This document shows, piece after piece, positions 2,537-39,368 of a DNA stretch of 64,000 nt. Within the stretch, counting starts at the first letter, position 1; the number at the start of each line of letters is the position of its first letter. The notes beneath the pieces were generated by a model that saw nothing but the letters and a program-made list of their open reading frames with translations, was not told where the DNA came from and ran no database searches. A program made the position numbers and the translations under genes. The DNA comes from a virus (lineage: Duplodnaviria; Caudoviricetes). The stretch spans positions 10,121 to 74,120 of the IMG/VR virus record IMGVR_UViG_3300021426_000009; one strand, given 5' to 3'.

Positions 2537-2559
2537 TATTCATCTAAAAGGCAAGAGCA

Positions 2560-2775
2560 ATGAAAGAAACAAGAGAAATGTTGTCCCTTTGGAAGCATTC
2601 AGTACAATGGGAGAAGATGACAAGTAGGCAGAAGGCATTATCGGTATGGTTCTCCCTGTCGTTCGTGATGGTCGGAGCATGTGGCGGCGATATGCTGCCC
2701 TTGGCCCTGGCCTTGGTGAATTTCGGTGCAGCGACGTACTTCTGCGTGAAAAACGTCCCAATGGAGGAGGAATGA
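2560..2775 (+). CDS. Small membrane protein (two hydrophobic segments)
   Basis: Hydrophobic stretch ALSVWFSLSFVMVGAC...LALALVNFGAATYFCV; AAGAGCAATG start. Confidence 0.7.
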   Translation: MKETREMLSLWKHSVQWEKMTSRQKALSVWFSLSFVMVGACGGDMLPLALALVNFGAATYFCVKNVPMEEE

Positions 2776-2978
2776 CCATGGAGAGAATGACAAGAACTGC
2801 CCCCACCACCCAGCAGAAGACGCTGTTCGTGGACGTGATGCTGCACGAGAGGTTCGTGTTCACTCTGAAGTACAAGTTCTGTCCCCTGTTCAAGCTGAAG
2901 CTGGAGGACATCGTGGAGAAGGTATTCGAGGCAAGGCCATCCCTGAAGGGCAAGCCGATAGAACTTTACATCGACTGA
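2772..2978 (+). CDS. Hypothetical protein
   Basis: ATGA overlap with the previous gene; in frame with ORF 2646..2978. Confidence 0.65.
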   Translation: MTMERMTRTAPTTQQKTLFVDVMLHERFVFTLKYKFCPLFKLKLEDIVEKVFEARPSLKGKPIELYID

Positions 2979-2979
2979 T

Positions 2980-3183
2980 ATGGTAAACGAGGAACCTCAG
3001 GTATCTCCGACTGCAAGGTACAGCATAGGAGAGGCGGCACAGATACTGGGCATCCACAGGAACACGCTCAGGAGACACACGAACATCGGTCCGTTAGGGA
3101 TCGACTGTAAGCACAGGAAGTCCAACGGACGTAAGTACTATACGGGGCTGGACATAGTCAGGTTCTGGAGAGCAAGCGTTTAG
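2980..3183 (+). CDS. Excisionase-like / MerR-type HTH DNA-binding protein
   Basis: YSIGEAAQILGIHRNTLRRH is a classic Xis/MerR-type HTH; near attP. Confidence 0.8.
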   Translation: MVNEEPQVSPTARYSIGEAAQILGIHRNTLRRHTNIGPLGIDCKHRKSNGRKYYTGLDIVRFWRASV

Positions 3184-3186
3184 GAT

Positions 3187-3459
3187 ATGGCACAGACTAT
3201 CTTTGATTTCGAGACGAACAGGAATGCGGTGATAATCCACTATCCGCACCTGTACCCGTATGGGCCTGCATACGAAGGCGAGAGACCGACTGGATGCGTG
3301 GTACGCTTCCATGGCTACTCCATCAGCGCCTCAGTCTATCAGAAGGGCTTCAGGGTGTTCAAGAACAGCGAGAACCTGTCGAAGCCGTTCCCTACTCTCA
3401 GGGAGGCAAGGAACTTCATCATCGACAGGGTGAACAAAAGACGAAGGCTTTTCAGCTGA
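3187..3459 (+). CDS. Hypothetical protein
   Basis: ORF track; operonic spacing. Confidence 0.6.
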   Translation: MAQTIFDFETNRNAVIIHYPHLYPYGPAYEGERPTGCVVRFHGYSISASVYQKGFRVFKNSENLSKPFPTLREARNFIIDRVNKRRRLFS

Positions 3460-3464
3460 AAGCC

Positions 3465-3803
3465 TCACACATCACTTGAGCCGTCAGCCTTTGGTTGGCG
3501 GCTTCTGTTTTTCCACTTGACAGGTACGGGCACGTCGGTGCCGTCACGGAAGACAGGCCCATCCCCAGTGAGCAGCCATGTGCCGGAGACACCGAAGTCC
3601 CTGACGAGCGGTGTAAGCACCTCGGGCTTCAGGACGGTGTTGTCTGGACTCTCCTTGACATGCTGGAGGTTGCGTCTGTTGATTCCGTACTTGGACGTGT
3701 AGGTCTGGAGACCCCTGAGGTGCCTCGCATCGGTCAGCATGTCAATCACCCTGAAGAAGCGCTCGGTGACGGCCAGCCCGTCCGTGTTGATACTCATTGC
3801 CAT
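3465..3803 (-). CDS. Putative HTH DNA-binding protein co-transcribed with the repressor
   Basis: Ends in SGTWLLTGDGPVF, resembling the C-terminal end of phage repressor HTH domains; 2 bp from the upstream gene. Confidence 0.6.
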   Translation of the reverse strand: MAMSINTDGLAVTERFFRVIDMLTDARHLRGLQTYTSKYGINRRNLQHVKESPDNTVLKPEVLTPLVRDFGVSGTWLLTGDGPVFRDGTDVPVPVKWKNRSRQPKADGSSDV

Positions 3804-3805
3804 GA

Positions 3806-4204
3806 CTATTCGAATTTGCGTTCAAGGATGGAGATCAGCCTCTCGAGGTTCTGAGCGTTTAGCTTGTTGGCCTCGGCATTCATCAGGTTGGCATCAGCGT
3901 TCTTCTTGCCAAGTGCTATGAACTCCTGCATCATCCTCACCATCGCCACCATGCTCGAGCCCTGGTCATCAGTCTTAGGATATTCTAAGTCCGTGTCGTG
4001 GTTCAGCATCTCACCGAAGCCGGTCTTCAGCCAGTTGACGTTCAGCTCGGGAAAGCCTTTCTCTATGAGCAGCAGGGATCCGTCCGTGATGTTGTCGTTC
4101 ACCTTGCTGCAGAATCCGTTCGATAGCCCGCACTTGCGTTCAAATGCGGACGGCTTGAGGTTCTTTGCCTCCAAAAAGGAGTACAGCCTGTCTTTTATGC
4201 CCAT
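3806..4204 (-). CDS. CI-like phage repressor (HTH, no S24 peptidase domain seen)
   Basis: IKDRL..FL..K......FE.KCGLSNG and FPELNVNWLKTGFGEML motifs typical of Bacteroidetes phage repressors; divergent from a Cro-like gene. Confidence 0.8.
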   Translation of the reverse strand: MGIKDRLYSFLEAKNLKPSAFERKCGLSNGFCSKVNDNITDGSLLLIEKGFPELNVNWLKTGFGEMLNHDTDLEYPKTDDQGSSMVAMVRMMQEFIALGKKNADANLMNAEANKLNAQNLERLISILERKFE

Positions 4205-4240
4205 ATAAGTTAAAAATAATTAAGCAATAGCATTTTCTAC

Positions 4241-4280
4241 GGATATTCTTAGGATATTCCGAATAAATTTGCTACCTTTG
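4241..4280 (+). promoter_or_regulatory. Rightward (lytic) promoter, -7 TACCTTTG at 4273-4280, with operator GGATATTCTTAGGATATTCC at 4241-4260
   Basis: Lies in the cI/cro intergenic region; repeats the 2047-2097 motif. Confidence 0.72.
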
Positions 4281-4318
4281 CACTACCTATTTAATATAAT
4301 AATGCAAAATTAGCAAAA

Positions 4319-4567
4319 ATGAGCGAAAGAAACAAGGAAAATCAGGAAAAAGTTCGAAAAATGACCCTCAAGGGCTATTATTCGCAACTACCAGATGCGA
4401 CTCATCCGAAGACGGACTTCGTGAATGAGGTGGCCATCGAGGCGGGAGTCTCCGCTGCCACCGTCAGGAACTGGGTCATCTACGGCATGCGTCCGCAGAA
4501 CAAGAGTCATGTGGAGATCCTGTCCCGAAAGACGGGTATCTCGGTTGAAGACCTTTGGGAAGATTGA
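4319..4567 (+). CDS. Cro-like HTH regulator
   Basis: VAIEAGVSAATVRNW HTH; divergent from the repressor. Confidence 0.75.
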   Translation: MSERNKENQEKVRKMTLKGYYSQLPDATHPKTDFVNEVAIEAGVSAATVRNWVIYGMRPQNKSHVEILSRKTGISVEDLWED

Positions 4568-4568
4568 T

Positions 4569-5117: not shown

Positions 5118-5151
5118 TTAACATTATGTGTAATTCAAAATTTCAAGAGCA

Positions 5152-6099
5152 ATGAGTTTATTTAAGAAACCAAGCGAGTTAGAGTTTGTGACCACCATCA
5201 AGATGCTGGTCTATGGTCAGCCGGGTATCGGCAAGTCAACAATGGCACTGAGTGCACCCAATCCCGTCCTGTTCGACTTCGACGGAGGTGTACAACGAGT
5301 AAACGTAGCGTTCCAGTGTCCGACGCTGCAAGTGAAGAGCTGGGAGGAAGCACTCCAGGCCCTCGATGAGTTAAAGGCTGGCGAGGTCGATTGCAAGACA
5401 ATCGTGATTGACACGGCAGGAAAGATGCTGGACTTCATGTCCGACTACATCATGCGTAACGACTCGAAGATGAAGCAGCGTGACGGCTCTCTCAGCCTGA
5501 AGGGCTATGGCGCCCGTAAGGTGATGTTCCAGAATTTCCTCCTTCAGGTGGCCCAGATGGGCAAGAACATTGTCTTCGTAGCACATGAGCGTGAGGAGAA
5601 GGACGGTGATACAAAGATCGTCCGTCCGGAGATTGGCGGTTCTTCAGCAGGCGACCTGATGAAGGAGCTTGACCTCGTCGGCTACGTTCAGGCCGTCGGT
5701 TCTGACCGTACCGTGTACTGGACACCTCAGGAGAAGTTCTATGCCAAGAACACCTGCAATCTCCCTGCATGGCAGAAGATACCTGTCATCGTTGACGAGA
5801 AGGGCAACGTGACACAGCAGAACGACACGCTGCAGAAGGTGTTCGCCTACTACGAGGCCAACGTGAAGAAGATCGAGGAGACACGCAAGCGCTACAACGA
5901 GCTCCTTGACGAGATTGAGGTGGCCATCGAGAACATCACGGATGCCAAGTCTGCCAATGAGTTTGCCAAGGCCATCGGCACGACGGAGATTATCTGGGAC
6001 AGCAAGGTTCGTGCCCGTGAGCTGTTCAAGGCCAAGGTAGAGCAGCTGAAGCTGAAGTGGAACTCTAAGTCGAAGACCTATGAAGACGCTGCAGCCTGA
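5152..6099 (+). CDS. AAA ATPase (Sak4-like recombinase)
   Basis: Walker A GQPGIGKS, Walker B TIVIDT, AHE motif. Confidence 0.85.
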   Translation: MSLFKKPSELEFVTTIKMLVYGQPGIGKSTMALSAPNPVLFDFDGGVQRVNVAFQCPTLQVKSWEEALQALDELKAGEVDCKTIVIDTAGKMLDFMSDYIMRNDSKMKQRDGSLSLKGYGARKVMFQNFLLQVAQMGKNIVFVAHEREEKDGDTKIVRPEIGGSSAGDLMKELDLVGYVQAVGSDRTVYWTPQEKFYAKNTCNLPAWQKIPVIVDEKGNVTQQNDTLQKVFAYYEANVKKIEETRKRYNELLDEIEVAIENITDAKSANEFAKAIGTTEIIWDSKVRARELFKAKVEQLKLKWNSKSKTYEDAAA

Positions 6100-7030: not shown

Positions 7031-7033
7031 GCA

Positions 7034-7513: not shown

Positions 7514-7515
7514 CC

Positions 7516-7971: not shown

Positions 7972-7987
7972 ACTAAAGTTTAATGAT

Positions 7988-8254: not shown

Positions 8255-8258
8255 GACT

Positions 8259-8672: not shown

Positions 8673-8695
8673 AACCATTTTAAAGTTAGAAGATT

Positions 8696-9458: not shown

Positions 9459-10634
9459 ATGCAATATCAGTTAAGAAACTATCAGAAGGCGGCAAGCGAT
9501 GCGGCAGTCGGTGCATTCACCTCGAAGAGGGAGAGCAACGGTCTGCTCATCCTGCCCACTGGTGCTGGAAAGAGCCTGGTCATTGCAGACATAGCGCACA
9601 GGCTGGATGGGCCTCTGCTCATCCTTCAGCCGTCGAAGGAGATACTGGAACAGAACTTTGCCAAGCTGCAGAGCTACGGCTGCTGGGACGCAGGCATCTA
9701 CTCGGCCTCCGTCGGCAGGAAGGACATCAACAGGATTACGTTCGCCACGATAGGCAGCGTGATGAACCACATGGAGTACTTCGAGCATTTCAGGAACGTG
9801 ATGATAGACGAGTGTCATGGGGTGAACAGCAAAGAGGGCATGTACGAGGAGTTCCTTCATGCCGTACCGAGGAAGGTTGTCGGACTGACGGCCACCCCCT
9901 ATCGTCTCGGACGTGGCTCGGAAGGCATGTCCATGCTGAAATTCCTCACTCGTACACGACCGAGGATTTTCGACAGGGTGCTGTACTATTGCCAGATCGG
10001 TGAGCTGCTGGCCAAGGGCTACCTTGCAGACCTGCACTACTACGACCTGACGACCATCAGACTTGACAGGGTCAGGAGCAACTCTACTGGAGCGGACTAT
10101 GACGAGAAGAGCTTGAAGCAAGAGTATGAGAGGAGCGGCTTCTACGACAAGCTGACAACGACCGTGCTCAGGGTCATGAAGCCGAAAAGCGGCATCCCGA
10201 GGAACGGCATACTGGTGTTCACTCGGTTCATCGAGGAGGCGGACAACCTCGTCGACAAGCTGAGGATAAAAGGCATTCAGGCTGCCATCGTGACGGGAGA
10301 GACACCCAAGCGTGAGAGGGAGAGCATACTGGAGAGGTTCAAGGCCGGAGAGATAAGGGTCGTGGCCAATGTTGGAACACTCACAACAGGCTTCGACTAC
10401 CCAGAGCTCGACACCATCATACTGGCACGTCCTACGAAGAGCCTTGCGCTGTACTACCAGATGGTGGGCAGGGCCATCCGTCCGCACAAGGGAAAGGAAG
10501 GCTGGGTCATAGACCTCGGCGGTACGTTCAGGCGCTTCGGCAACGTGGCAGACCTTAGGATAGAATGCCCTCCAGGCACGAGCAAGTGGGCCGTGTACTC
10601 GAGGGGAAGACAGTTGACAAACGTGAATTTCTGA
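9459..10634 (+). CDS. SF2 DEAD/DEAH-box helicase (RadD/YejH-like)
   Basis: LPTGAGKS, DECH, GLTATP, TGFD and QMVGRAIR motifs. Confidence 0.95.
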   Translation: MQYQLRNYQKAASDAAVGAFTSKRESNGLLILPTGAGKSLVIADIAHRLDGPLLILQPSKEILEQNFAKLQSYGCWDAGIYSASVGRKDINRITFATIGSVMNHMEYFEHFRNVMIDECHGVNSKEGMYEEFLHAVPRKVVGLTATPYRLGRGSEGMSMLKFLTRTRPRIFDRVLYYCQIGELLAKGYLADLHYYDLTTIRLDRVRSNSTGADYDEKSLKQEYERSGFYDKLTTTVLRVMKPKSGIPRNGILVFTRFIEEADNLVDKLRIKGIQAAIVTGETPKRERESILERFKAGEIRVVANVGTLTTGFDYPELDTIILARPTKSLALYYQMVGRAIRPHKGKEGWVIDLGGTFRRFGNVADLRIECPPGTSKWAVYSRGRQLTNVNF

Positions 10635-11472: not shown

Positions 11473-11511
11473 AAAAATGTTAGCAACAATGCGATTTCTC
11501 GGAAAAATGTG

Positions 11512-13293: not shown

Positions 13294-13392
13294 TTAAGAC
13301 CGAAAACGTTTGACTAAGAGCTGAAAGATGAATAACTTTAAACAATATACAGGAAACAAGATTCTAACGGAAACTGAAAGAGCAATGAAGAT

Positions 13393-14868
13393 ATGACTTA
13401 CAACGAGATAACATTATGGAGACACTTCATGCAGGGAAAGGGAGTCCTGAGTAACTTCGAGTACCTGTACAAAGCCCACAGGTTCGACAAGAGGGACCTC
13501 GACAAGTACTTGGAGGACACTCTCGCAGAGGACGTCATCCTGTCGGCATTCGACTTCACGGGAGCAGGCAACACCATCTTCGGATTCAAGTACTGGAAGG
13601 AAATGGATCAGAAGTGGCAGCTGAAGCTCCGTGAGTTCAGGATGTCTGGCAACATGATAGGAGAAATGAAGGTCGTCTGTCCGCACTGCAACCGCTCTCT
13701 CCCGAAATCGAACTTCGCCTACAACCCGAAGGGACAGCTCCACAAGCATTGCAGGGAGTGCGAGTCGGGCGAATGGGACAGGAAGAAGAAGGAGGCCGAG
13801 AAGAAGGCCCTGGAGCAGGAACGTCTTGCCAAGGAGGCACGTCAGCTGGAGAAGGAGATAGCAGAGAAGCAGGCCAAGCTCGAGAGGATGACTGCCACCA
13901 TGTCGGACACCCCAGCGGAGCCGGTCCTGAACGGAAGGGAGGAGACGGCACGTCAGCAGATAGCCGAGAGCCAGGCCAACCTCGGGAAGACCACGAAGGT
14001 ATGCAGCCATTGCGGAAAGCGCAAGCTGAAGTCGGAGTTCGACAAGTCGGACACGACGGAGGACGGCCTCCAGTCGTGGTGCAGGACATGCCAGAGTGCT
14101 GCATCCAATGTCAGCAATGAGACGGACTGGCAGTATGAACGTGAGGAGAAGAAGAAGGCCATCATCGCACAGGCGAAGCCGGTGAGCATAGAGAAGCTGA
14201 CCGCACCGAGGCTTGGCGAGTATGACGCAACCCTCCACTACAAGTCCAATCAGAAGAGCATCACGTTCAATGCAGTCCTTTCGGAACAGCTGCAGAAGGG
14301 GCAGTTCACGAAATGCTACCTGAACAGCGACAGGTCGCACCGCCAGTTCCTCATCTTCAATCGTGTGGACGGTGCCAATGTCGTGGGTGTCAGCAGCCGT
14401 GCATCCATGCTGCTGGGCATCAACTCGGCAGACATAGTCCGCAGCCTCGGAGCAAGGTTCAACCTGAATATTGGAGAGAACTACTACCTGCACATCACTC
14501 GCAACCTGTCGAGGACAAGCGACATAGTGACTGTCGAGATACTGGCCGCCCGCACAAGGGAGGAATATGTGAAGATCGCCCAGCGACGTGAGGAGAAGTC
14601 GGGCAGTGAGGAGTCGGAGGTCCAGGAACCTGAGGTGACGGAGGAGAAGCCCGTGGTGGAGACACCGAAGGAGGAAGAGAGTCAGGCATCCTCCCAGCCC
14701 CTGCTGGACTTCGACACCGAGCCGTCTCAGGGTATAAATGCAGAGAAGATACTGGAAAATCTGACAGACCGCAATCTCCTGTCGGAGCGGGACCTCGCAA
14801 AGTTCCTTCACAAGAGAGGATGGAAGCTGCAGGAGCCGGTAAGGTCATATAAGAAGTTCACGCTATGA
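13393..14868 (+). CDS. Large hypothetical protein with two Cys4 zinc-ribbon modules and a coiled coil
   Basis: CPHC...CREC and CSHC...CRTC. Confidence 0.75.
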   Translation: MTYNEITLWRHFMQGKGVLSNFEYLYKAHRFDKRDLDKYLEDTLAEDVILSAFDFTGAGNTIFGFKYWKEMDQKWQLKLREFRMSGNMIGEMKVVCPHCNRSLPKSNFAYNPKGQLHKHCRECESGEWDRKKKEAEKKALEQERLAKEARQLEKEIAEKQAKLERMTATMSDTPAEPVLNGREETARQQIAESQANLGKTTKVCSHCGKRKLKSEFDKSDTTEDGLQSWCRTCQSAASNVSNETDWQYEREEKKKAIIAQAKPVSIEKLTAPRLGEYDATLHYKSNQKSITFNAVLSEQLQKGQFTKCYLNSDRSHRQFLIFNRVDGANVVGVSSRASMLLGINSADIVRSLGARFNLNIGENYYLHITRNLSRTSDIVTVEILAARTREEYVKIAQRREEKSGSEESEVQEPEVTEEKPVVETPKEEESQASSQPLLDFDTEPSQGINAEKILENLTDRNLLSERDLAKFLHKRGWKLQEPVRSYKKFTL

Positions 14869-17436: not shown

Positions 17437-17724
17437 ATGGCAAAGAAGTACAAGTACAAGCGTGAGCATTTCGACTCCAACGAGGAGTATGCCAGTTTCA
17501 GGAAGCGTGCTACGGCTGGCTACAGGAAATGGCTCGAAAAGCATGAGAAGGAGCATCCTGAATACAAGGAACGCAGGATTCTCCGTCAGAGGCTTTACTC
17601 GAGGTACTACTGGCATGGGGACGGCAGGCAGACGTTCGCACAATGGCTGGAGGAGAACCTCGGGATAAAGGACATCAAGGTGGTTCCATTGGAGGATCTG
17701 AGGGTCATCGCAAGCAAAAGTTAA
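17437..17724 (+). CDS. Basic hypothetical protein
   Basis: ORF track. Confidence 0.6.
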   Translation: MAKKYKYKREHFDSNEEYASFRKRATAGYRKWLEKHEKEHPEYKERRILRQRLYSRYYWHGDGRQTFAQWLEENLGIKDIKVVPLEDLRVIASKS

Positions 17725-17843
17725 ACATTCTGAATATCAGGACGTTAGCCCGAAAATACTTGCGTTTTTCCTTGGTCATTTGCAAAAAAATGACTACCTT
17801 TACACTATAAAAAAAGAAACTCATCTAAAAGTTAAGAGCAATG
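17713..17843 (+). repeat. Promoter cassette repeat copy R1 (TTG-N20-TACCTTTA ... AAGAGCAATG)
   Basis: Shares AAAAGTTAAACATTCTGAA and an identical TTGCAAAAAAATGACTACCTTTACACTATAAA core with 31132-31257 and 38213-38342. Confidence 0.9.
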
Positions 17844-18221
17844 GATAAGAAACAAGAAATCGAGATTTTGCAGTCCCTAAAAGGTGACACCTACTTCGCA
17901 GACTTTTTCGGAAGTCATGACATCGACCAGATGTGCGAGAACATCAAGAACGACTTCGGGCTGGAATACTGCTGCACGTTCTATCAGAAGGCTTCCATCT
18001 TCGAGCAGCAGGTCAAGGAAGCCAAGAAAAAAGCCCAGGAGGACAAGCAGAACTTTGTTCGAGGTCTGATTGAGGACTTCGAGGGTAGCATTCCGATGCA
18101 GATTTATGACCGACTGGTTGATGCCGTCGGACAGTTGTTCATCATCAACTTCAAGAGAGAACAGAACTATCCGCTGACGGAAGCCGAGATCGACTGGCTC
18201 GTAAAGGAAGCGAACAAGTAA
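17841..18221 (+). CDS. Hypothetical protein (island 1)
   Basis: First gene behind R1. Confidence 0.75.
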   Translation: MDKKQEIEILQSLKGDTYFADFFGSHDIDQMCENIKNDFGLEYCCTFYQKASIFEQQVKEAKKKAQEDKQNFVRGLIEDFEGSIPMQIYDRLVDAVGQLFIINFKREQNYPLTEAEIDWLVKEANK

Positions 18222-18278
18222 GAAGTTATAGGTAACGGGAGGGGTAACCGCCCTCCCACTAAGAGCAATATAAGAAAC

Positions 18279-19196
18279 ATGGAAGTAAAGATTTTAGGAT
18301 GGTCGCCATCCAAGACATTCAGAGAGGATGGAAGCAACATGAAGATTAACGTTCATGTACGTCTGCATGACGAGTGTAAGAACGGGCATTACGACTTCAG
18401 CATCACAGGCGAGGTGTACAGACAGGCCGCTAACGGACGATGGGTCGATGACAGATGCGGTTGCATCCATGAGGACATCGAGAGACTGTTCCCTCAGCTG
18501 AAGAAGTTCATCCCCCTGCATTGCTGCAACTACCTCGGACACCCGATGTACCCTGAGGCCAACGGCCAGTACTTCATCAGGGAGAAGGGCAAGGAGGTTG
18601 CGATGGAGCAGCTTCGTATCACGGAGAAGGAGTACGACATTCTCAGCCTCGCAGCAGATGACGAGGAGCGTCCGTATTTCAAGTACCTGCTGTTCACTCT
18701 CGGAATCGTTGATCGCTGGAAGCAGGAAGCCGACGAGTTCATCAAGTTCCTCGAGGAGAAGACAGGCAATACGTGGGTCAACCCATACAAACCCGAGGAA
18801 GAGCGCAACATCATGCGCCTGACAGAGGATGAGCGCAATGAGATTAAGAAGAAGATCGATGAGGGCTACTATTCGGTGGAAGCCCAGAAGGCACGTAGGG
18901 AGGCACGCTACAAGGCTGCCCAGGATGCCATCAGGAACAGAATCATCGAGAGATACGAAGAGACGGAGAGGAAAGCCCGTGAGGAGCGTGACATCAAGCT
19001 GTACATCTTCGACAGCGGGATGCCCATCGACAACGTGATTTACTACGACCACACGAAGCAGGTGGTGTTCAACTGGCAGGACTGGGAAAAGAAGGTCACT
19101 CAGGAGCAGTTCGTGGATTTCGTCAACAAGGTCGACTACTCAAAGCTGCCGGAGGGTGTGACGTTCCACTTCGGCAAGGATGACAGGAAGAAGTAA
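18279..19196 (+). CDS. Hypothetical protein with Cys/His motifs (island 1)
   Basis: DECKNGHYDFSITG, GCIHEDI and LHCCNYLGHPMY motifs. Confidence 0.75.
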   Translation: MEVKILGWSPSKTFREDGSNMKINVHVRLHDECKNGHYDFSITGEVYRQAANGRWVDDRCGCIHEDIERLFPQLKKFIPLHCCNYLGHPMYPEANGQYFIREKGKEVAMEQLRITEKEYDILSLAADDEERPYFKYLLFTLGIVDRWKQEADEFIKFLEEKTGNTWVNPYKPEEERNIMRLTEDERNEIKKKIDEGYYSVEAQKARREARYKAAQDAIRNRIIERYEETERKAREERDIKLYIFDSGMPIDNVIYYDHTKQVVFNWQDWEKKVTQEQFVDFVNKVDYSKLPEGVTFHFGKDDRKK

Positions 19197-24436: not shown

Positions 24437-25504
24437 ATGAAAGTAGCAATTATCGGAACTGGGAACGTCGGCATCGCCATAGCTGCCGACTTGTCTATCA
24501 GGGAGCATGAGGTGTCCCTGATAAAGACGTCAAATGTGAGATCGGAGGCCTATGACAGGCTTCTCAGGAACAACAACCGTGTGTACTTAAAGGAGGACGG
24601 AACCTATACGCAGACCACCATCAAGGAGGTAACACGGGACATCACTAAGATTTCGGATGCGGAGGTGGTCATCGTGACCATCCAGAGCACCTACCACGAA
24701 GAGCTGTACAAGAGGATAGCCCCGTATCTGAAAGGCAGTCAGGTGGTGCTCATCATCTGCAGCTATATGTCTTCTTTCTACCTGTCGAAGTATTGTCAGG
24801 TGCTGCCTGCCATCGCAGAGGCTACTGGCCCCTACCTCGAGGGTCGTGTGGAACTGAACGATATGAAGGAAGAGGTGGTATTTAGGGTAGGATGCAGGCT
24901 TACGAGAAGCCCGCTGTCGGTGTTCCATCCAAATCGTGCCAATGAGTGCATGGAGAAGCTGAAAGCCCTGTACAAGGGCCTGAGCAACGACTACTCTGTC
25001 ATAGAGTCAGCCCTGCTGAACCCGAACCTCGTGATTCACACCGTAGGAGCCGTCATGAGCATCCCTCGCATCGAGTACAGCGACGGGAACTTCTGCATGT
25101 ATCGTGAGGCTTACAGTCACAAGAACCAGGCCACGCTCAACGTCATGTTCAAGCTGGATGAGGAGAAGAAGAAAGTTCTGATAGCGCTCAACAGCAGGGG
25201 TATCGACATCTTGGAGGCCGGTGGCTTCCTGAAGGGCATGGAGAGCTTCTATGAGTATTCCGAGTCGGAAGACAGGGCCATCAGTCCGACCTCGATACAC
25301 TCGAGATACATCACGGAGGACGTTTCTCAGGGACTGGTACTGATGGAGAGCATAGCCAACTATCTCGGTATCATCGTGCCAGTTACGACTTCTCTCATAG
25401 ACCTCGCAAGCGCAGCCCTCGGCATTGATTTCAGGCTCGAGGGACGCAGTATATTCTCGCTGGATGCCGACAGATACATTGACCACCTGACGCATAGACT
25501 ATGA
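24437..25504 (+). CDS. NAD(P)-dependent opine (octopine/nopaline) dehydrogenase family protein
   Basis: MKVAIIGTGNVG Rossmann motif; LLNPNLVIHTVG and SRYITEDVSQGL match Octopine_DH domain motifs. Confidence 0.88.
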   Translation: MKVAIIGTGNVGIAIAADLSIREHEVSLIKTSNVRSEAYDRLLRNNNRVYLKEDGTYTQTTIKEVTRDITKISDAEVVIVTIQSTYHEELYKRIAPYLKGSQVVLIICSYMSSFYLSKYCQVLPAIAEATGPYLEGRVELNDMKEEVVFRVGCRLTRSPLSVFHPNRANECMEKLKALYKGLSNDYSVIESALLNPNLVIHTVGAVMSIPRIEYSDGNFCMYREAYSHKNQATLNVMFKLDEEKKKVLIALNSRGIDILEAGGFLKGMESFYEYSESEDRAISPTSIHSRYITEDVSQGLVLMESIANYLGIIVPVTTSLIDLASAALGIDFRLEGRSIFSLDADRYIDHLTHRL

Positions 25505-27576
25505 ATATCGGAGAAGACCTGAAGACCCGAACCTTCGGTGTGGAGATAGAAATGTGTAACCTCGACAGGCAACTGGTCAAGCTGCCGGATGGTTACTCAT
25601 GGAGCAAGGATGAGGAAATCGTGAATACGGACGGGTCGAGCAACAAGCGTTTCGGTGGAGAGGTGAACACCCCTCCACTCTGTGTTTACAGCATGAAGGA
25701 CCTCCACAGCCTGAAGGCCTGCTATGACTCCATGAGGGAGGCTGGAGGTGTGATAAAATGGACTACCTACACGCACGTCCATGTTTATGCAGGAGACCTG
25801 ACTGTCGAGCATATAAAGAAGGTATGGCTCTTCTTCTATATCTGCTACCCTTGGTGGAAGAGATACACGAAACTCTCCGACTGGGACGAGCTGACGTTCA
25901 ACTGCCAGCCGCTGCCGACAGAGAAGTACTACAAGGGACTGCTGGAGGCAGAGACCTTCGAGGACATCAACAAGCTGTTCACGAACCAGTCGAAGAAGGG
26001 ATTCATCAGGCATGCCTGCAATATCTCAGCATACTTCAAGACGAAGACCATAGAGTTCAGGACATATCACGGCACGAGCGATTTCAGGGAGGCCATGAAC
26101 TGCGTCCTCTCGACGTACCGTCTGTTCTACTATGCCGTCAACCATGATTTGGATGACTACAAATCCATTTCCTCATATGAGCAGTTTTTGCAGGCTACGG
26201 GACTCAAATACGAGGTCCCAAGAGAGCTTGTTCCTCTACTCTACCAAGGAAACCCCTATAGTGCCATCGAGACGTTCCAGACGAGATCCCTGCCGTATAA
26301 CTCGAAGCAGGCATCGGCATTGTGGGAGGCCGTCAAGAATCACGGGCACAAGGAGCTCTGCATCGTGAACGGCTTCATGTACTACTACGAGCTGTTCTTT
26401 ATGGACAAGGTGAAGCTCTCCATCTATGCCCAGGACCCGTACTGCCATCTGCTGTGGATGATAGCCAACGGCAAGATAACGCTGAAGTACAAGGAGAAGT
26501 TGTCATGGCTGGAGGACTATAATAACGAAACCCCGTCACGGCAGCTTGCGATTGCCTTGTATGCGGAGAAACTGCAGAAGTTCTCAATGAGCGATTCCAA
26601 GAGGAACGAGGCTGTCATCGAGTCGGTCAAGATACGTGCCAAGGAATCCATCGAGAAGACGGAGAAGGGCTGCGAACGTCTCATGAAGCTGCTGACCACC
26701 TGCGAGTACCATGTTGGAACGCTTCAGGATGCCATACCTCAGAAGAGCGTGATATTCTTCAACTACGGCAAGGACAAGACGCAGAAGCGAACGTTCAAGC
26801 TGATAGCGGAGAACAGCGACTTGGAAATGGAGTTCAACTGCAAGCGCAATGACTACTACGAGGTGATAGAGTCCCTGCCAAAGGAGTCATACTTCTATTA
26901 CTTCAGCAACAGCCCGTACCTGCGTAACATGCACAAGCTGGCCATGTGGGACTCGTCAAGCGGAGACAGGTGGTCTGCAGGCCGTTTCCTGTACTGCAAC
27001 AAGCCGAGCAACCAGAATCAGGTCAGCACGTCATACAAGTCGAACCATGTGGAGGTGAACGAGATCGTCCCGCCTGATGACCTGGTCATCGACAACCCGA
27101 ACAGCCTGAAGATAGTAAGGGTCAGCTCATCGTCACTCCATTGTCTTCAGAAGAAGTACATCAAGAAGGTCGACCAGTGCAGCATGTGCACCTATGCCTT
27201 CGTCGTGATGTACGAGAAGTACACCCTCGGAGGCTTCGGCTTCACGCTTCCTCAGCACAAGGGCTACGACCTGTTCCAGCTGACGGATTTCTGCACGAAC
27301 AACAATATCCCACGACTGGCGAAGCTGATACTGCTCTGCATACAGACGGCCGGTGTGCAGAAGGAACTCTCACGAAGGATGCACAAGCTGTGCGAGAAGG
27401 TCATATCATGTGCCTATACGCACAAGCCTGTCAGTATGAAGTACAGGGGTGTCTATACGAAGGTGAAGGAGCATTGCACAACCTCATACCTCGCATACGA
27501 GGGACAGCTGGGCAAGTTCGCCACCAACAAGGAGGTAATAGAGAAATATCGTAAAATGTTGAATAATGGAAATTGA
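25501..27576 (+). CDS. Three-domain protein: amidoligase (COOH-NH2 ligase type 2), degenerate adenine-MTase-like domain, Mom/GNAT-like C-terminus
   Basis: N-term RTFGVEIEM, DGS, GEVNTPPL, HVHV, TIEFR. C-term LTDF...RLAKLILL...CAYT.KPVSMKYRG resembles ParB-linked phage DNA-modification proteins. No NPPY/DPPY-type motif is visible in the middle domain. Confidence 0.72.
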   Translation: MNIGEDLKTRTFGVEIEMCNLDRQLVKLPDGYSWSKDEEIVNTDGSSNKRFGGEVNTPPLCVYSMKDLHSLKACYDSMREAGGVIKWTTYTHVHVYAGDLTVEHIKKVWLFFYICYPWWKRYTKLSDWDELTFNCQPLPTEKYYKGLLEAETFEDINKLFTNQSKKGFIRHACNISAYFKTKTIEFRTYHGTSDFREAMNCVLSTYRLFYYAVNHDLDDYKSISSYEQFLQATGLKYEVPRELVPLLYQGNPYSAIETFQTRSLPYNSKQASALWEAVKNHGHKELCIVNGFMYYYELFFMDKVKLSIYAQDPYCHLLWMIANGKITLKYKEKLSWLEDYNNETPSRQLAIALYAEKLQKFSMSDSKRNEAVIESVKIRAKESIEKTEKGCERLMKLLTTCEYHVGTLQDAIPQKSVIFFNYGKDKTQKRTFKLIAENSDLEMEFNCKRNDYYEVIESLPKESYFYYFSNSPYLRNMHKLAMWDSSSGDRWSAGRFLYCNKPSNQNQVSTSYKSNHVEVNEIVPPDDLVIDNPNSLKIVRVSSSSLHCLQKKYIKKVDQCSMCTYAFVVMYEKYTLGGFGFTLPQHKGYDLFQLTDFCTNNNIPRLAKLILLCIQTAGVQKELSRRMHKLCEKVISCAYTHKPVSMKYRGVYTKVKEHCTTSYLAYEGQLGKFATNKEVIEKYRKMLNNGN

Positions 27577-29132: not shown

Positions 29133-29486
29133 ATGGCAAAGAACATTTCGATTGAGGACATCGTAAAGATGTACGAGAAGAAGGGTTGCAACATCACGGC
29201 AACCTGTGCTGCCCTGAATATCTCCCGTAAGACTTTCTACGAATGGAAGGAGAAGAAGAAGAAGCTCGCAGAGGGTCTGGAGGAGGCAGAGGAGGCTGTC
29301 CTCGACTGGGCAGAGAGCAAGCTGAAGGAGCATATCCAGAACGATGATCTGCAGGCCCTGATATTCTTCCTGAAGACGAAGGGTAAGAAGAGGGGCTATG
29401 TAGAGAAGACGGAGACCGACGTGAACATCAACCAATTCGAAAAGCTCATGCAGGAAACGGAGGATGATGACGATGACGATGAGTAA
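29133..29486 (+). CDS. terS: Terminase small subunit
   Basis: N-terminal HTH (CNITATCAALNISRKTFYEW), ALIFFLKTKGKKRGY; directly precedes terL. Confidence 0.82.
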   Translation: MAKNISIEDIVKMYEKKGCNITATCAALNISRKTFYEWKEKKKKLAEGLEEAEEAVLDWAESKLKEHIQNDDLQALIFFLKTKGKKRGYVEKTETDVNINQFEKLMQETEDDDDDDE

Positions 29487-30997
29487 TGGGTAGTTCCGAC
29501 AAGCGACATAACAAGATGCGAGCGTGGCGCAAGGACTGGTGTTTATTCGCCAAGCAAGTGCTCCACGCTCGTCTCGACAAAGAGCAGAAGGAAATCCTGC
29601 GAGCCATACAGAATGAACGCATGGTTGCCGTAGCTTCGGGTACAGCCCGAGGCAAGGACTATATTGCCGCTGTCGCATGCCTGTGCTTCATGTACCTCAC
29701 TCCCCGATGGAAGGACGGCCGTCTGGTGAAGAATACCAAGATTGCGATGACGGCTCCTACCGACCGACAGGTGAGGAACATCATGGTTCCTGAGGTCAGA
29801 CGTCTCTACAAGGCCGCTCAGGTGCTGCCTGGCCGTCTTGTCGGCTATGACATACGAACGGAGTATGAGGAATGGTTCCTGACAGGCTTCAAGTCGAGTG
29901 CGGACAATACGGAGGCATGGTCTGGATTCCATGCCGTGAACACGATGTTCGTGGTGACGGAGGCATCGGGTATCTCGGAGACTATTTACAATGCCATCGA
30001 GGGTAACCTGCAGGGCAACTCACGACTGCTGCTTGTGTTCAACCCGAACGTAACTACTGGCTATGCGGCCAATGCCATGAAGTCGGCACGTTTCAAGAAA
30101 TTCAGGCTCAACTCCCTGAATGCCGAGAACGTTGTCAGGAAGAAGAACGTCATCCCAGGTCAGGTGGACTATGAATGGGTGAAGGATAAGGTCGAGAACT
30201 GGTGCATCCCCATCAGGGAGGAAGATGTCAACGAGGGAGAGGGAGACTTCTTCTGGGAAGGACGCTGGTACAGACCGAACGACCTCTTCCGTGTCAAGGT
30301 TCTCGGAATGTTCCCGAAGGTGGCGGAGGACGTGCTCATACCATACGAATGGGTGGAGATTGCCAACAGACGATGGCTGGAGCTTCAGGAGGAGGGCTTC
30401 ACCACGAAGAAGAAATGCAGACTCGGTGTCGACGTGGCCGGTATGGGTCGAGACTCGTCCGTCCTGTCCCCGAGATACGGTAACTACCTCGGAGAGTTCG
30501 AAGTCCACAACTCCGCTGGTGTGGCAGACCACATGCACGTCGCAGGCATGGTGTCCAACTACCTCGTCAAGAAAGGCACGAAGGCCTTCATCGATACCAT
30601 CGGTGAGGGTGCAGGTGTCTATTCGAGGCTGAAAGAACTCGGCTACGACTATGCCTATTCGTGCAAGTTCTCGGAGAATGCCAACGGCCTCCATGACATC
30701 ACGGAGGTCTATACGTTCGCCAATATGCGTGCCTACCTGTACTGGGCTGTCAGGGACTGGCTGAACCCGAAGAACGGCTTCGAGCCTGCCGTACCGCCAA
30801 ACGATCTGTTTATGCAGGAGTGTACGGAGGTGCACTGGAAGTTCCAGAGCAGCGGAAGCATCATCATAGAGAGCAAGGATGACATCAAGAAGCGCCTCGG
30901 AAGGTCTCCTGACTACCTCGATTCGGTGGCCAACACGTTCTACCCGAGGGACTACGAGACACTGCAGGAAAGCGAGATTTTCGGAGATTTCCTCTAA
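29486..30997 (+). CDS. terL: Terminase large subunit
   Basis: SGTARGKDY, Walker B VVTEASG, coupling motif FNPN, nuclease motifs GVDVAGMG.D and SPDYLDS. Confidence 0.93.
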   Translation: MGSSDKRHNKMRAWRKDWCLFAKQVLHARLDKEQKEILRAIQNERMVAVASGTARGKDYIAAVACLCFMYLTPRWKDGRLVKNTKIAMTAPTDRQVRNIMVPEVRRLYKAAQVLPGRLVGYDIRTEYEEWFLTGFKSSADNTEAWSGFHAVNTMFVVTEASGISETIYNAIEGNLQGNSRLLLVFNPNVTTGYAANAMKSARFKKFRLNSLNAENVVRKKNVIPGQVDYEWVKDKVENWCIPIREEDVNEGEGDFFWEGRWYRPNDLFRVKVLGMFPKVAEDVLIPYEWVEIANRRWLELQEEGFTTKKKCRLGVDVAGMGRDSSVLSPRYGNYLGEFEVHNSAGVADHMHVAGMVSNYLVKKGTKAFIDTIGEGAGVYSRLKELGYDYAYSCKFSENANGLHDITEVYTFANMRAYLYWAVRDWLNPKNGFEPAVPPNDLFMQECTEVHWKFQSSGSIIIESKDDIKKRLGRSPDYLDSVANTFYPRDYETLQESEIFGDFL

Positions 30998-31002
30998 AAA
31001 AC

Positions 31003-31033
31003 TTGTTTGTTTCGGGAAAATTGCCTATCTTTG
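31003..31033 (+). promoter_or_regulatory. Promoter TTG-N20-TATCTTTG
   Basis: TATCTTTGCAGCGTT (31026-31040) is identical to the portal promoter at 33413-33427; no plus-strand ORF before the terminator at 31082-31120. Confidence 0.72.
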
Positions 31034-31039
31034 CAGCGT

Positions 31040-31120
31040 TTCTTATAATGAAGCTGCGTTTCAGCAGATTCATTGCTCTTGCCAGTCCAAGTCGTGAGAC
31101 TATGGGCTGGTTATTTTTTT
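31040..31120 (+). ncRNA. Candidate ~80-nt small RNA containing TTCATTGCTCTTG, antisense to AAGAGCAATG start motifs
   Basis: Promoter upstream; hairpin AATGAA/TTCATT plus CTGC/GCAG; intrinsic terminator CCAGTCCA-AGTC-GTGA-GACT-A-TGGGCTGG-TTATTTTTTT. Confidence 0.6.
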
Positions 31121-31131
31121 GTGTGCTTTTG

Positions 31132-31257
31132 AAAAAGTTAAACATTCTGAATATCAAGTTGTTAGCTTGAAAAAAGGCACGAAAAAATTTGGAAAATTGC
31201 AAAAAAATGACTACCTTTACACTATAAATAAGAAACATAAAAAACAGAAGAGCAATG
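31132..31257 (+). repeat. Promoter cassette repeat copy R2
   Basis: Aligns with R1 and R3; TTTG-N20-TACCTTTA; TATCAAGTTGTTA matches the IHF consensus WATCAANNNNTTR. Confidence 0.9.
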
Positions 31258-31422
31258 AAGAAAGAAGAATTGAAAAAGCAGCTCAGAAATCGTTCAAACG
31301 AAGAACTGAGGGAGGCAATGAGAATCCTCTACACCGCAAAGGTCCCGAACCACGAGGAACTGGTTGAGACGGCAAACGTCTATTCGGAAGTGCTGAAGGA
31401 AAGAGGAGTAGCAGAAGCATAA
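31255..31422 (+). CDS. 55-aa protein (not in ORF track), island 2
   Basis: MKKEELKKQLRNRSNEELREAMRILYTAKVPNHEELVETANVYSEVLKERGVAEA. Confidence 0.7.
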   Translation: MKKEELKKQLRNRSNEELREAMRILYTAKVPNHEELVETANVYSEVLKERGVAEA

Positions 31423-31464
31423 GAGTTATAAGAAACATAGTATTCATCTAAAAAGACAAGAGCA

Positions 31465-31857
31465 ATGAAGGAAGTTAAGAAGTTTTTGGTTTACTACAAC
31501 GAAAGTAGAGAGTTGATCGGAATGAGGGAACACCACTTCGATTGGGAAGAGGGTGACACCATCACGACCGATGGAGTAAGCACCGTGATTTTCGGCATCT
31601 TCGAGGGAACGAAGAAGAACCTGAGTCTGGCACACAGGATGTTCGACACCCTCCGCAAGTACCTGCCGAAGAAGAAGGAGGTGAGAGTCCTCGATGAGGG
31701 CTTCGTGAAGACCGGTGATGCGTTCGAGGATATGATGAACGCAATGCTCCACAGCCACTATGAGTTGGTGGACGTTCACAAGAAGGTATGGAGAGACTTC
31801 GATGCACAGCTGGACTTCGTAGACAGCGTGTTCGCAGAAATGGAAGAAATGAAGTAA
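31465..31857 (+). CDS. Hypothetical protein, island 2
   Basis: AAGAGCAATG start. Confidence 0.7.
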   Translation: MKEVKKFLVYYNESRELIGMREHHFDWEEGDTITTDGVSTVIFGIFEGTKKNLSLAHRMFDTLRKYLPKKKEVRVLDEGFVKTGDAFEDMMNAMLHSHYELVDVHKKVWRDFDAQLDFVDSVFAEMEEMK

Positions 31858-32272: not shown

Positions 32273-32284
32273 AAGATAAGAGCA

Positions 32285-32683
32285 ATGAAGACTGTAGTAG
32301 AATGGAAGAATAAGAAAATTGAGGTCAGCAGCCGATATGTCGGCTACGACACCCCTCCCTTCGGTGGTAACAAGCGTAGTCATTTCAAGGTGTCAATAGC
32401 CGTGTCAGGCAAGGGAGGTGACAGGATTTTCAGGTCGGACTTTTGGCAGAGGGACAAGAAGATGAGAGCCCAGGATCTGCGTGAAGCCCTTGAGTGCTTC
32501 TGCAGCGATGCCATCGGAGGAGACATGAGCGTAGAGGATTTCAGGGACGAGTTCGGCTATGATGACATCGACAGGCTGTTCAAGGTGCACAATGCCTGCA
32601 AGGACTGTTTCGAGAACTTCAGGCACCTCGGCCTTGACCCCTATGAGCTGAGCAACTGGCTCAGGGAGAAGTACGATATATAA
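32285..32683 (+). CDS. Hypothetical protein, island 2
   Basis: AAGAGCAATG start. Confidence 0.7.
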   Translation: MKTVVEWKNKKIEVSSRYVGYDTPPFGGNKRSHFKVSIAVSGKGGDRIFRSDFWQRDKKMRAQDLREALECFCSDAIGGDMSVEDFRDEFGYDDIDRLFKVHNACKDCFENFRHLGLDPYELSNWLREKYDI

Positions 32684-33326: not shown

Positions 33327-33390
33327 AGGCCGCAGACATACAAAAAGAAGTGAAAACGCTTGGAATTTAGCAAATTTTTCAGAAAAAATG

Positions 33391-33420
33391 CTTGATTTTC
33401 AAGCGTTTTTTATATCTTTG
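33391..33420 (+). promoter_or_regulatory. Portal-operon promoter with perfect CTTGA-TTT-TCAAG palindrome and -7 TATCTTTG
   Basis: Read directly from sequence. Confidence 0.72.
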
Positions 33421-33444
33421 CAGCGTTATAACACTTTTTTGAGC

Positions 33445-34887: not shown

Positions 34888-34910
34888 TCAACCGATAGAA
34901 TGAGTGTGTC

Positions 34911-35162: not shown

Positions 35163-35499
35163 GTTCGAGGAGAGCCGTTACCATCGTGGGAAGAAGTATT
35201 GGATGGCCACCACTCTCCTGAAGGCGGTTCAGGACCAGGAGCTTGAGCCGTTCGACTATCCAGTAGCCGCATATGACATGAGCAACAGGTATTTCGACCT
35301 GAATAACATGGATGATTTCTGCTGGCAGATGAAGAGGACTCTCGAGGCAGACTATAAGAACAACCCGATAATACTTGATGACTTCGGACAGGTAGCAGAC
35401 GGCAACCACCGCCTGTGCCATGCCATCCTTGACGGTGAGAGTACCGTGAAGGCCTATCGTCTGATAAGTATGCCGGAGCCTGATTTTACAGAGGAATGA
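35131..35499 (+). CDS. ParB/Srx-like small protein
   Basis: PIILDDFGQVADGNHRLCHA motif. Confidence 0.7.
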   Translation: MPPVIAFSKFKFEESRYHRGKKYWMATTLLKAVQDQELEPFDYPVAAYDMSNRYFDLNNMDDFCWQMKRTLEADYKNNPIILDDFGQVADGNHRLCHAILDGESTVKAYRLISMPEPDFTEE

Positions 35500-35500
35500 A

Positions 35501-38014: not shown

Positions 38015-38016
38015 GT

Positions 38017-38202
38017 ATGAAGGTAAGGTTCCAAGAATATGACAAGAAATGGTTGTACGACACCAAGAAGAAGATGTTGTACGACATTGTAGATAACGAC
38101 TGCTACAAGTCGAAGATTGATATGATACAGCTGACGAAGTTCAATCCCTTCGCCAAGCTGACGCACACATACGTCATCAATCCGTATAGAGTCCGAAAAT
38201 GA
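38017..38202 (+). CDS. 61-aa protein, candidate immunity protein of the MuF toxin
   Basis: ATG 2 bp after the MuF stop; MKVRFQEYDKKWLYD... Confidence 0.5.
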   Translation: MKVRFQEYDKKWLYDTKKKMLYDIVDNDCYKSKIDMIQLTKFNPFAKLTHTYVINPYRVRK

Positions 38203-38212
38203 CGGCCATACG

Positions 38213-38342
38213 GCAAAAGTTAAACATTCTGAAAACCAGATTGTTAGCCGAAAAATACTTTGAAAAACGTTTGGTCATTTGCAAAAAAATGACTACCTTT
38301 ACACTATAAAATAAGAAACATTATTAAACAAGAAGAGCAATG
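38213..38342 (+). repeat. Promoter cassette repeat copy R3
   Basis: Aligns with R1 and R2; GTCATTT-GCAAAA-AAATGAC inverted repeat between the -33 and -7 boxes. Confidence 0.9.
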
Positions 38343-38639
38343 AAAAATCAGTTGGAAAAAGAAGTAAAGAGCATGATCGAAGGGTTAATCTCGGATGCCA
38401 AGGTCTATGAAGGCCTGAATCAGACGCACGATGATTTCAGGGTGTTTGTCGATGAGGGCAACCAGCAGTTGGCCATCATGTTCAAGGATGTCACTAACCA
38501 GTTCGGTCATGAGTGGAACGGACACCTGTATGAGATACAGGATGATAAACTCGAAATCGTAGAGTATGGAGCCTTCGACTGCATGGCCATCGAGGACTGG
38601 ACAAACTGCGATTTCGTTGAAGTTGAATTGAAGTGGTGA
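38340..38639 (+). CDS. Acidic hypothetical protein, island 3
   Basis: AAGAGCAATG start. Confidence 0.7.
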   Translation: MKNQLEKEVKSMIEGLISDAKVYEGLNQTHDDFRVFVDEGNQQLAIMFKDVTNQFGHEWNGHLYEIQDDKLEIVEYGAFDCMAIEDWTNCDFVEVELKW

Positions 38640-38699
38640 CCTTTAAGAAGATAAGAGTTATAAGAAACATAGTATTCACCTATTTAAAAATTAAGAGCA

Positions 38700-39368
38700 A
38701 TGAAGAAAGAAGAGTTGAAAGCAGCAATCACGAAGAATTTTGCTGAAAATGAGTTTGACAAGGCAATGGAGCTGAACAAGGATCTGTTCCAGGAGTATGA
38801 GAACGTGGCAGGCAAGCGCAGCCTTACCGCCCTTGTGACCTACTGGAAGAAGAGGTCAGAGGATGAGGGTATCAAGGAAGAAGGTACTCTCGAGCCTGTC
38901 GAGGAAACCATCACATCGGAGGAGTCAGGAGAGCTGGAGGAAGCCCTCGGCATCCCTGCACCCGAAGAGGTGAAGGTCGAGGAGCCTGAGCACCAGTTCA
39001 TACTGGGAGAGACACTTGACACGGCACAGATAGAGACCCTGCTGGAGAGAGGCAACAAGGCTCTCACACGCTACTGCATCGTCAAGGAGGAGTTCAAGCA
39101 GATTAGCGACACGGAGCGTTTCATCAAGACCTCAATGATGGTCAAGGAGGACGGCTTCGGATGGAAGAGCTTCGAGTCGGCTATGGGAGTCCTCGGAGGC
39201 AAGAAAGGTATCACTGAGCGCAGGCTCGGCAGCTTCTGGAGATCGGAGTGCGGACTACCTGTCGGAGAGGAAATCACGAAGAAGACCATCTACAAGGTCG
39301 GAGAGGCATTGCGAAAGTTCGCCTTCCGTCTGAACGAGTCTGCCATCACATGTGTAACCAGCATCTAA
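38700..39368 (+). CDS. Hypothetical protein, island 3
   Basis: AAGAGCAATG start; begins MKKEELK like 31255..31422. Confidence 0.7.
   Translation: MKKEELKAAITKNFAENEFDKAMELNKDLFQEYENVAGKRSLTALVTYWKKRSEDEGIKEEGTLEPVEETITSEESGELEEALGIPAPEEVKVEEPEHQFILGETLDTAQIETLLERGNKALTRYCIVKEEFKQISDTERFIKTSMMVKEDGFGWKSFESAMGVLGGKKGITERRLGSFWRSECGLPVGEEITKKTIYKVGEALRKFAFRLNESAITCVTSI

Follow-up and report, generated by a model that had tools for sequence, protein, structure and literature searches.

In phages P1 and P7 and satellite P4, the small trans-acting antisense RNAs c4 and CI carry short exposed seeds that pair with repeated sites in the phage's own transcript and cover the ribosome-binding region, and they keep lytic or anti-repressor functions in check; P1 c4 is built with two seeds. 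In phage T4, a single phage factor, RegA, shuts off many early mRNAs via a short element that overlaps their start codons. Here, we analyse a 64,000-nt window of a complete virus record of 74,120 bp with 127-bp terminal repeats (IMG/VR record IMGVR_UViG_3300021426_000009; the window is the whole stretch from base 10121 to base 74120), in which a 10-base sequence that includes ATG, AAGAGCAATG (hereafter, the tag), stands at the starts of dispersed genes and has its exact complement within a candidate gene for a small RNA (sRNA) of ~84 nt. Judged from sequence, the tag is probably the address of this phage sRNA, which would block initiation at structure-free start regions.

The start-associated sequences of Cluster K mycobacteriophages (SAS/ESAS; Pope et al. 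2011, PMC3203893) resemble the tag in being a short asymmetric motif at many non-structural gene starts of temperate phages and in heading different gene families; SAS is absent from the host genome. As with the tag, SAS copies lie in nearly one orientation, with a single complementary-strand copy in several genomes (PMC3203893), and at about half of the SAS sites there is another element upstream, which may be compared with the second box described below. The single complementary-strand copy is stated for Cluster K1 (PMC3203893, legend to Fig. S3), and an antisense RNA may be the explanation of SAS too. Considered as a member of the Cluster K SAS, however, the tag fails on both sequence and spacing, and the likeness is one of layout only: the 13-bp SAS consensus GGGATAGGAGCCC contains the Shine-Dalgarno (SD) core and lies 3-7 bp before the start codon, whereas the tag includes the ATG, and the SAS hosts are Actinobacteria with SD pairing, whereas those of the tag phage are Bacteroidota. 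The function of SAS was still open in 2025, with no cognate RNA reported (PMC12699233).

The c4 antisense RNA (mentioned in PMC8198154) and CI act on two to four sites in one operon and are processed from the same transcript, whereas here ~13 dispersed genes are tagged at the start codon; c4 (Rfam RF01695) has no match in sequence or structure to the phage sRNA, and the hosts here are Bacteroidota, without SD pairing or Hfq. In Bacteroides thetaiotaomicron, the trans-encoded sRNA GibS pairs through a conserved single-stranded seed across the start codons of SD-less mRNAs and represses them (PMC7366714). GibS has two adjacent seed regions, like the phage sRNA, but differs in being chromosomal, in its long unstructured 5' seed and imperfect pairing and in its few metabolic targets, which have no shared exact tag, and it is not homologous to the phage sRNA. 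RegA, for its part, is a protein with loose sequence specificity, whereas we propose an RNA and an exact 10-12-mer element. By analogy, then, the layout is closest to the Cluster K SAS and the proposed mechanism is closest to the P1/P7 c4 and P4 CI RNAs and to GibS; the system would be a variant of phage antisense-RNA control, outside every named family.

The start-codon tag in the phage and its relatives

A pattern search finds ten copies of the tag in the window, nine in sense orientation on the + strand and one antisense on the - strand. They are given here together with a variant site and with the copies of a second leader box, ATAAGAAAC, that lie close to them (ORF, open reading frame; aa, amino acids).

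2553-2562, + strand: tag copy; ATG at 2560 of a 71-aa ORF; the complementarity to the sRNA reaches 15 nt
5145-5154, + strand: tag copy; ATG at 5152 of a 315-aa Sak4-like AAA_24 protein
13378-13396, + strand: tag copy at 13378 and mini-ORF; three-codon ORF at 13385-13396; its stop codon, TGA, shares bases with the ATG (13393) that opens a 491-aa endonuclease-VII/HNH-like gene
17834-17853, + strand: tag copy and second box; ATG at 17841 of a 126-aa ORF; ATAAGAAAC at 17845-17853, directly after the tag
18261-18281, + strand: variant site AAGAGCAAT, followed directly by ATAAGAAAC and then by the ATG at 18279 of a 305-aa gene
31071-31080, - strand: tenth, antisense tag copy
31248-31257, + strand: tag copy; ATG at 31255 of a 55-aa ORF, the first gene behind a promoter cassette
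31458-31467, + strand: tag copy; ATG at 31465 of a 130-aa ORF; ATAAGAAAC box 30 nt upstream (31428)
32278-32287, + strand: tag copy; ATG at 32285 of a 132-aa ORF
38333-38342, + strand: tag copy; ATG at 38340 of a 99-aa ORF; ATAAGAAAC box 22 nt upstream (38311)
38693-38702, + strand: tag copy; ATG at 38700 of a 222-aa ORF; ATAAGAAAC box 33 nt upstream (38660)

The nine + strand copies had been listed in an earlier note on this DNA and were all recovered at the same coordinates, while the antisense copy was absent from that list. The note had taken each of the nine as a start codon; this stands for eight, where the tag ATG opens an ORF of 55-315 aa, and not for the copy at 13378, whose ATG opens M-K-I-stop only, the 491-aa gene behind this short leader having its own start codon at 13393. 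The ATGA overlap of the mini-ORF with the nuclease-like gene might permit termination-reinitiation coupling, which would put the nuclease under the control of the tag; we found no orthologues of the 491-aa gene, in which conservation of the mini-ORF could be followed, among the relatives' loci compared. The decayed copy that the note had seen at 18261 is real, as is the variant AAGAGT-ATG before PRTRC-E (19227), and the note was right that the capsid and tail genes lack the tag: none of the virion-module starts from 40194 to 62828 carries it, the nearest sequence being AAGAACAATG at 45997, before the 1566-aa gene at 46004.

Over the whole 74-kb genome, there are 13 sense copies and one antisense copy, and in 12 of the 13 sense copies the tag ATG is the start of a 55-315 aa ORF. 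Dinucleotide-preserving shuffles of the window (n = 100) contain 0.25 tag copies on average and three at most; none reaches ten. The tag AAGAGCAAUG is usually extended to AAGAGCAAUGAA, and the tagged genes encode the Sak4-like AAA_24 protein, the endonuclease-VII/HNH-like nuclease (via the mini-ORF) and small proteins without a family match. Several of the copies have nothing in common beyond ~12 nt and some others share 30-100 nt upstream; in five genome copies, the tag closes a repeated promoter cassette. A looser context, purine-rich and of the form TAAAAG-spacer-ATG, is seen at other phage starts.

Related loci were collected from IMG/VR by anchoring on terL, the gene of the large terminase, and even at a terL identity of 72% the tag is retained. 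Five near-complete relatives hold 7-13 sense and 0-2 antisense copies of the 10-mer; in 28 further related records, the 9-mer core occurs 4-20 times on one strand and 0-3 times on the other, with at most one copy of a reversed control. Among 206 distinct sense contexts across loci, 186 (90%) start an ORF of at least 40 aa, and the second codon is mostly AAA or AAG; A is found at -7 in 79%, at -6 in 89%, at +4 in 81% and at +5 in 75% of them, which makes for a 12-nt consensus. The tagged ORFs of the relatives represent 181 distinct proteins in 71 unrelated BLASTP families, always of non-structural genes, and since it heads so many unrelated families, the tag travels independently of any one gene. 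Relatives with as little as 64% protein identity still have the exact tag at the orthologous Sak4-like start, with the 30 nt upstream diverged; only in the most distant ones, of 60-78% identity, is it changed or missing. Our search for other repeated start tags in the relatives gave none that was comparable.

The candidate small RNA gene and its proposed pairing with the tag

The antisense copy falls within the candidate sRNA gene, which has the following parts.

31037-31120, + strand: candidate sRNA of ~84 nt; the antisense tag copy in it is 74 nt past the terL stop
31003-31033, + strand: sRNA promoter; TTG at 31003-31005, a 20-nt spacer and a -7 box of the TAnnTTTG type, TATCTTTG, at 31026-31033
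31038-31046, + strand: 5' seed GUUUCUUAU, the first nine bases of the sRNA; reverse complement of the ATAAGAAAC box
31046-31075, + strand: hairpin P1 of the predicted fold
31071-31080, + strand: main seed CAUUGCUCUU, the exact complement of the tag; extended at 31069-31083
31081-31111, + strand: terminator hairpin with a GUGA cap, followed by a U run at 31114-31120

The promoter has 15 nt in common with that of the portal gene (33387-33434), and no ORF is conserved on either strand of the ~84-nt unit. The antisense copy was also considered as the start of a minus-strand gene and rejected, the ORF being of 4-62 aa among the homologues and not conserved. With a promoter, an intrinsic terminator and no ORF, the locus has the predicted make-up of an independent transcription unit. 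It is found at the same place after terL in four relatives (G063, G065, G066 and G067), and the 9-nt seed is present in 70 of 80 terL-anchored IMG/VR loci; the distant Sak4 relatives L022, L023 and L028 have neither tag nor seed. A 14-base pattern combining the promoter and the 5' seed matched 117 stretches over IMG/VR, almost all of them by chance, with two real homologues.

In an alignment of 24 non-redundant homologues of the sRNA, the TAnnTTTG box is at the same place in all 24. Mean column identity is 57%, and no column is invariant outside the nine positions of the seed and the GUGA loop. Compensatory changes are seen at each of six pairs in the terminator helix: paired cells make up 93.8% versus 62.5% in shuffles, and the covariation score is 0.863 versus 0.274, a value that none of 500 shuffles attained (slid controls, at most 0.17). 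The fold z-scores range from -4.7 to -6.0, with -4.7 for the sRNA of this phage, and place the seed between hairpins. An Rfam search of 30900-31300 returned no family, the best hit being Aar at 25.2 bits against a cut-off of 60, and no C4 hit at E up to 10.

Many relatives have a second RNA, of ~115 nt and three hairpins in an unrelated scaffold, with its own TAnnTTTG promoter and terminator; it is not found in this window. The same seed, here UCAUUGCUCU, lies in the apical loop of its middle hairpin. Example loci are as follows.

L166, 17161-17274: second RNA
L167, 14895-14995: second RNA
L161, 16948-17066: second RNA
L162, 14721-14835: second RNA

We regard the tag, its start-codon register, its specificity to a phage group, the conserved architecture of the RNA gene and the complementarity between the two as established. 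An exact complement of the sRNA, 10-15 nt long, is found at 13 start regions of the whole genome. The tagged start regions (-30 to +21) are almost unstructured, with 30% GC and a mean minimum free energy of -1.5 kcal/mol versus -5.3 kcal/mol for the other 74 starts (p = 1.7e-5). Cofolding with the sRNA gives net binding energies of -13.6 to -15.5 kcal/mol for five tagged regions, versus -3.7 and -6.0 for two untagged starts, and in a duplex scan of the start regions the tagged ones come out highest (mean -19.9 vs -11.6).

The second leader box points to the same RNA. The ATAAGAAAC box has eight copies in the genome, all on the + strand, and six of the eight lie 20-33 nt upstream of a tag; its sole reverse complement in the genome is the 5' end of the sRNA. 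This clade (G000, L152 and L155) has both the box and the 5' seed, and the other clades have neither. The two boxes adjoin each other at 17834 and 18261, in an order that permits colinear pairing of both seeds around hairpin P1, and at 17834 such colinear pairing of both is what cofolding predicts.

We propose that the tag, present where translation starts in about a dozen non-structural genes, is the pairing site of the trans-acting sRNA 31037-31120, whose unpaired seed, UUCAUUGCUCUU, is its exact complement. A-rich and near structure-free, the tagged starts would support efficient initiation on the SD-blind ribosomes of Bacteroidia; as the sRNA accumulates, a duplex of 10-15 bp would form over -7 to +5 and hide the start codon from the 30S subunit, all tagged genes would be translationally off together and mRNA decay would probably be next. 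In this clade, the 5' seed GUUUCUUAU would in addition pair with the second leader box, AUAAGAAAC, for stronger binding. From the features above, we infer production of the RNA, its pairing with the tag and a repressive effect; repression is favoured over activation since there is no inhibitory structure at the targets for pairing to open. A seed that never varies would fit the constraint imposed by many targets. As for timing, late accumulation of the sRNA and a shut-off of early or accessory proteins are our guess, suggested by the location of the sRNA at the 3' end of the terS/terL operon and by the promoter type shared with the portal gene; the main alternative would be a constitutive damping of the tagged genes in the lysogen.

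Several observations weigh against this proposal. In the sRNA of this phage, the predicted fold has the 5' half of the seed base-paired within P1, and pairing with the tag would thus need strand invasion. A simple terminator scanner did not flag the sRNA hairpin, owing to its bulged stem and the 3-nt offset before the U run. The sub-lineage G068-G070 (the records behind L156, L157 and L160) has 4-6 sense tags and no antisense seed, in records that are 61-90% complete; a candidate variant seed in G070 was rejected as it lies inside coding sequence, with no promoter or terminator. Genome-wide, the duplex scan with a 22-nt probe is unspecific, with 804 windows at -15 kcal/mol or below, and our case for pairing is built on the exact complement and the cofold net energies, not on that scan. 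Covariation of the 3' flank of the seed with tag position -7 was tested and none was found, and as the cores of seed and tag never vary, compensatory covariation between the two cannot be demonstrated. Among the start variants, finally, pair-breaking G-to-A changes number 7 and 5 versus 12 wobble-compatible C(-2)-to-T changes, a mild preference.

Host start signals and other explanations of the tag

A contig with a 92%-identical Sak4 gene is binned with an Alloprevotella metagenome-assembled genome, and the family of the latter was taken as the host family. The 61 genomes of this family hold 679 tag copies in 173.4 Mb, a density of 3.9 per Mb, and the 189 per Mb in the phage is 48-fold above it. 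A reversed control occurs at 1.3 per Mb in the same genomes; the 10-mer is thus about three times commoner there than the control, mostly inside ORFs, an excess probably due to codon usage or base composition. All 20 tag copies in two complete host-family genomes were inspected: at most two are possible starts of ORFs, these being only 41-43 aa long, and the remaining copies lie inside long ORFs or out of frame with them.

Nor does the tag follow the start signals described for such hosts. The 16S rRNA of one host-family genome ends ACACCTCCTTTCT, a tail that does not contain the complement of the tag, and with pairing of at most ~4 nt, an SD element is ruled out; Bacteroidia ribosomes are known to sequester the anti-SD (PMC7797042). 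A at -3 is a described positive determinant of initiation in Bacteroidia (PMC6847099), whereas G occupies -3 in 100% of the 206 contexts; this speaks against a Kozak-like Bacteroidia context and is at odds with the A(-3) preference that the earlier note had cited. On the sequence evidence, the tag is neither a generic host start context nor an SD or Kozak-like one. The note had also argued from copy number to selection, and this is borne out by the 48-fold density, by the two host copies in 20 at possible starts, by the retention at the Sak4-like start down to 64% identity and by the at least 71 families headed; equal abundance at host gene starts was looked for and not found (3.9 vs 189 per Mb; 2 of 20). 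Of the two readings that it had left side by side, a strong initiation signal and a shared regulatory target of an sRNA, the latter is now the more strengthened, the sole antisense copy being the seed of a conserved promoter-hairpin-seed-terminator unit present in 70 of 80 related loci.

The former reading would make the tag an intrinsically strong initiation context for the non-SD ribosomes of Bacteroidia, spread with leader or promoter cassettes, the complementary RNA being incidental or secondary. The tagged starts are indeed A-rich and near-unstructured, which is favourable in Bacteroidia (PMC6847099), their second codon is mostly AAA or AAG, five genome copies end a repeated promoter cassette and the looser TAAAAG-spacer-ATG context recurs at other starts. 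We nevertheless consider it unlikely, since every copy has a G where A is the determinant, no virion gene is tagged and host-family genomes almost never use the tag at starts; it also leaves the invariant exact complement in two different promoter-terminator RNA scaffolds unexplained. As a second role of the tag, beside that of an sRNA address, strong initiation may still apply.

In mycobacteriophage L5, stoperators are asymmetric multi-copy DNA sites bound by the phage repressor and oriented with transcription. If the tag were such a site (stoperators are mentioned in PMC3203893), a phage DNA-binding regulator would bind all 14 copies as double-stranded DNA, and the copies are indeed short, asymmetric, intergenic and in nearly one orientation relative to transcription. 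The exact ATG register in 90% of the 206 contexts, however, points to translation; in both of two unrelated scaffolds, the reversed copy always falls in an unpaired stretch of a structured RNA, and the +4/+5 extension matches the RNA seed. No candidate binding protein was identified, and we find a DNA site of this kind distinctly improbable.

A protein might also read the tag on the mRNA, the RNA gene then having another role. In T4, short motifs in the start regions of many early mRNAs are the targets of the repressor RegA and the endoribonuclease RegB, and a tag confined to non-structural genes would suit a reader of either type. Such a reader, however, predicts no conserved exact complement in an RNA gene, as a decoy would carry the sense sequence, and no RegA- or RegB-like protein was seen among the proteins scanned, in a scan that was not exhaustive; its chances appear very slim to us. 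That the copies are functionless leftovers of a recent duplication of one leader is hardly credible: some do share 30-100 nt upstream, but several share nothing past ~12 nt, the tag is kept where terL is at 72% identity and heads 71 unrelated protein families, and at the orthologous Sak4 start the flanks have diverged around an exact tag.

Phage setting and wider meaning

The phage is placed in the Bacteroidales by its type of integrase (minus strand, 372-1688, with Bacteroidetes-type arm-binding and SAM-like domains), by a BACON domain and by its TTG ... TAnnTTTG promoters, and many of its relatives are classed as proviruses. Among GenBank phages, megablast of the virion module and tblastn of terL gave no close named relative; the best matches of the large terminase, a 503-aa gene at 29486-30997, are below 30% identity. 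The promoter cassette that precedes some of the tag copies, D1, is repeated in the window.

17716-17811, + strand: promoter cassette D1, at the head of an island that bears tags; -7-like box TACCTTTA; 7-bp palindrome spanning the spacer
31133-31228, + strand: second copy of D1, directly after the sRNA terminator
38215-38310, + strand: third window copy of D1

The D1 palindromes (17765-17790, 31182-31207 and 38264-38289) consist of GTCATTT, a 6-nt spacer and AAATGAC, and the -7 box TACCTTTA ends in A, not G, which suggests that the D1 promoters are under operator control and form a class apart from the canonical TACCTTTG promoters at 11508, 23310 and 33387. After the sRNA terminator, a AAAAGTTAAA element at 31125-31145 opens the promoter cassette; it is kept at the same place in nearly all relatives (L152-L155, L166, L186 and others), with its surroundings diverged. 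Two further features were noticed in passing. Between the minus-strand integrase and the rightward genes, at 1586-1936, there are three copies of a ~31-nt repeat (family D14), each with TTTGCACG twice, which may form the operator array of the lysis-lysogeny switch. Just upstream of terS/terL, at 25501-27576, a 691-aa fusion of three domains (amidoligase, phage DAM-like domain 2 and phage GNAT-like domain) probably belongs to a DNA-hypermodification cluster.

If the pairing of the sRNA with the tag is real, the addition of 10-12 start-codon bases would be enough to bring acquired genes under a portable, common translational control, and the tag could mark early or accessory genes of these phages (moron genes, possibly anti-defence). 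For phages of Bacteroidota, this would be the first description of a self-directed sRNA regulon with multiple targets, and the SD-blind ribosomes of this phylum would make start-codon occlusion especially effective; it could also provide an orthogonal tag-and-sRNA switch for Bacteroides and Prevotella genetic tools. The logic of many sense copies plus one antisense copy may, by analogy, also explain the start-associated sequences of Cluster K, giving a testable mechanism for a mycobacteriophage element that has been unexplained since 2011. We see an even chance that post-transcriptional switching of this kind operates genome-wide in a large group of temperate Bacteroidales phages from gut and rumen, with a fixed tag on the start codons of acquired accessory or early genes and one or two master sRNAs. 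The group comprises hundreds of IMG/VR contigs, many of them integrated proviruses, and the seed is invariant in all sampled lineages, plausibly due to the many targets that depend on it; if true, the mechanism would extend to hundreds of uncultured temperate phages that infect bacteria of gut and rumen.

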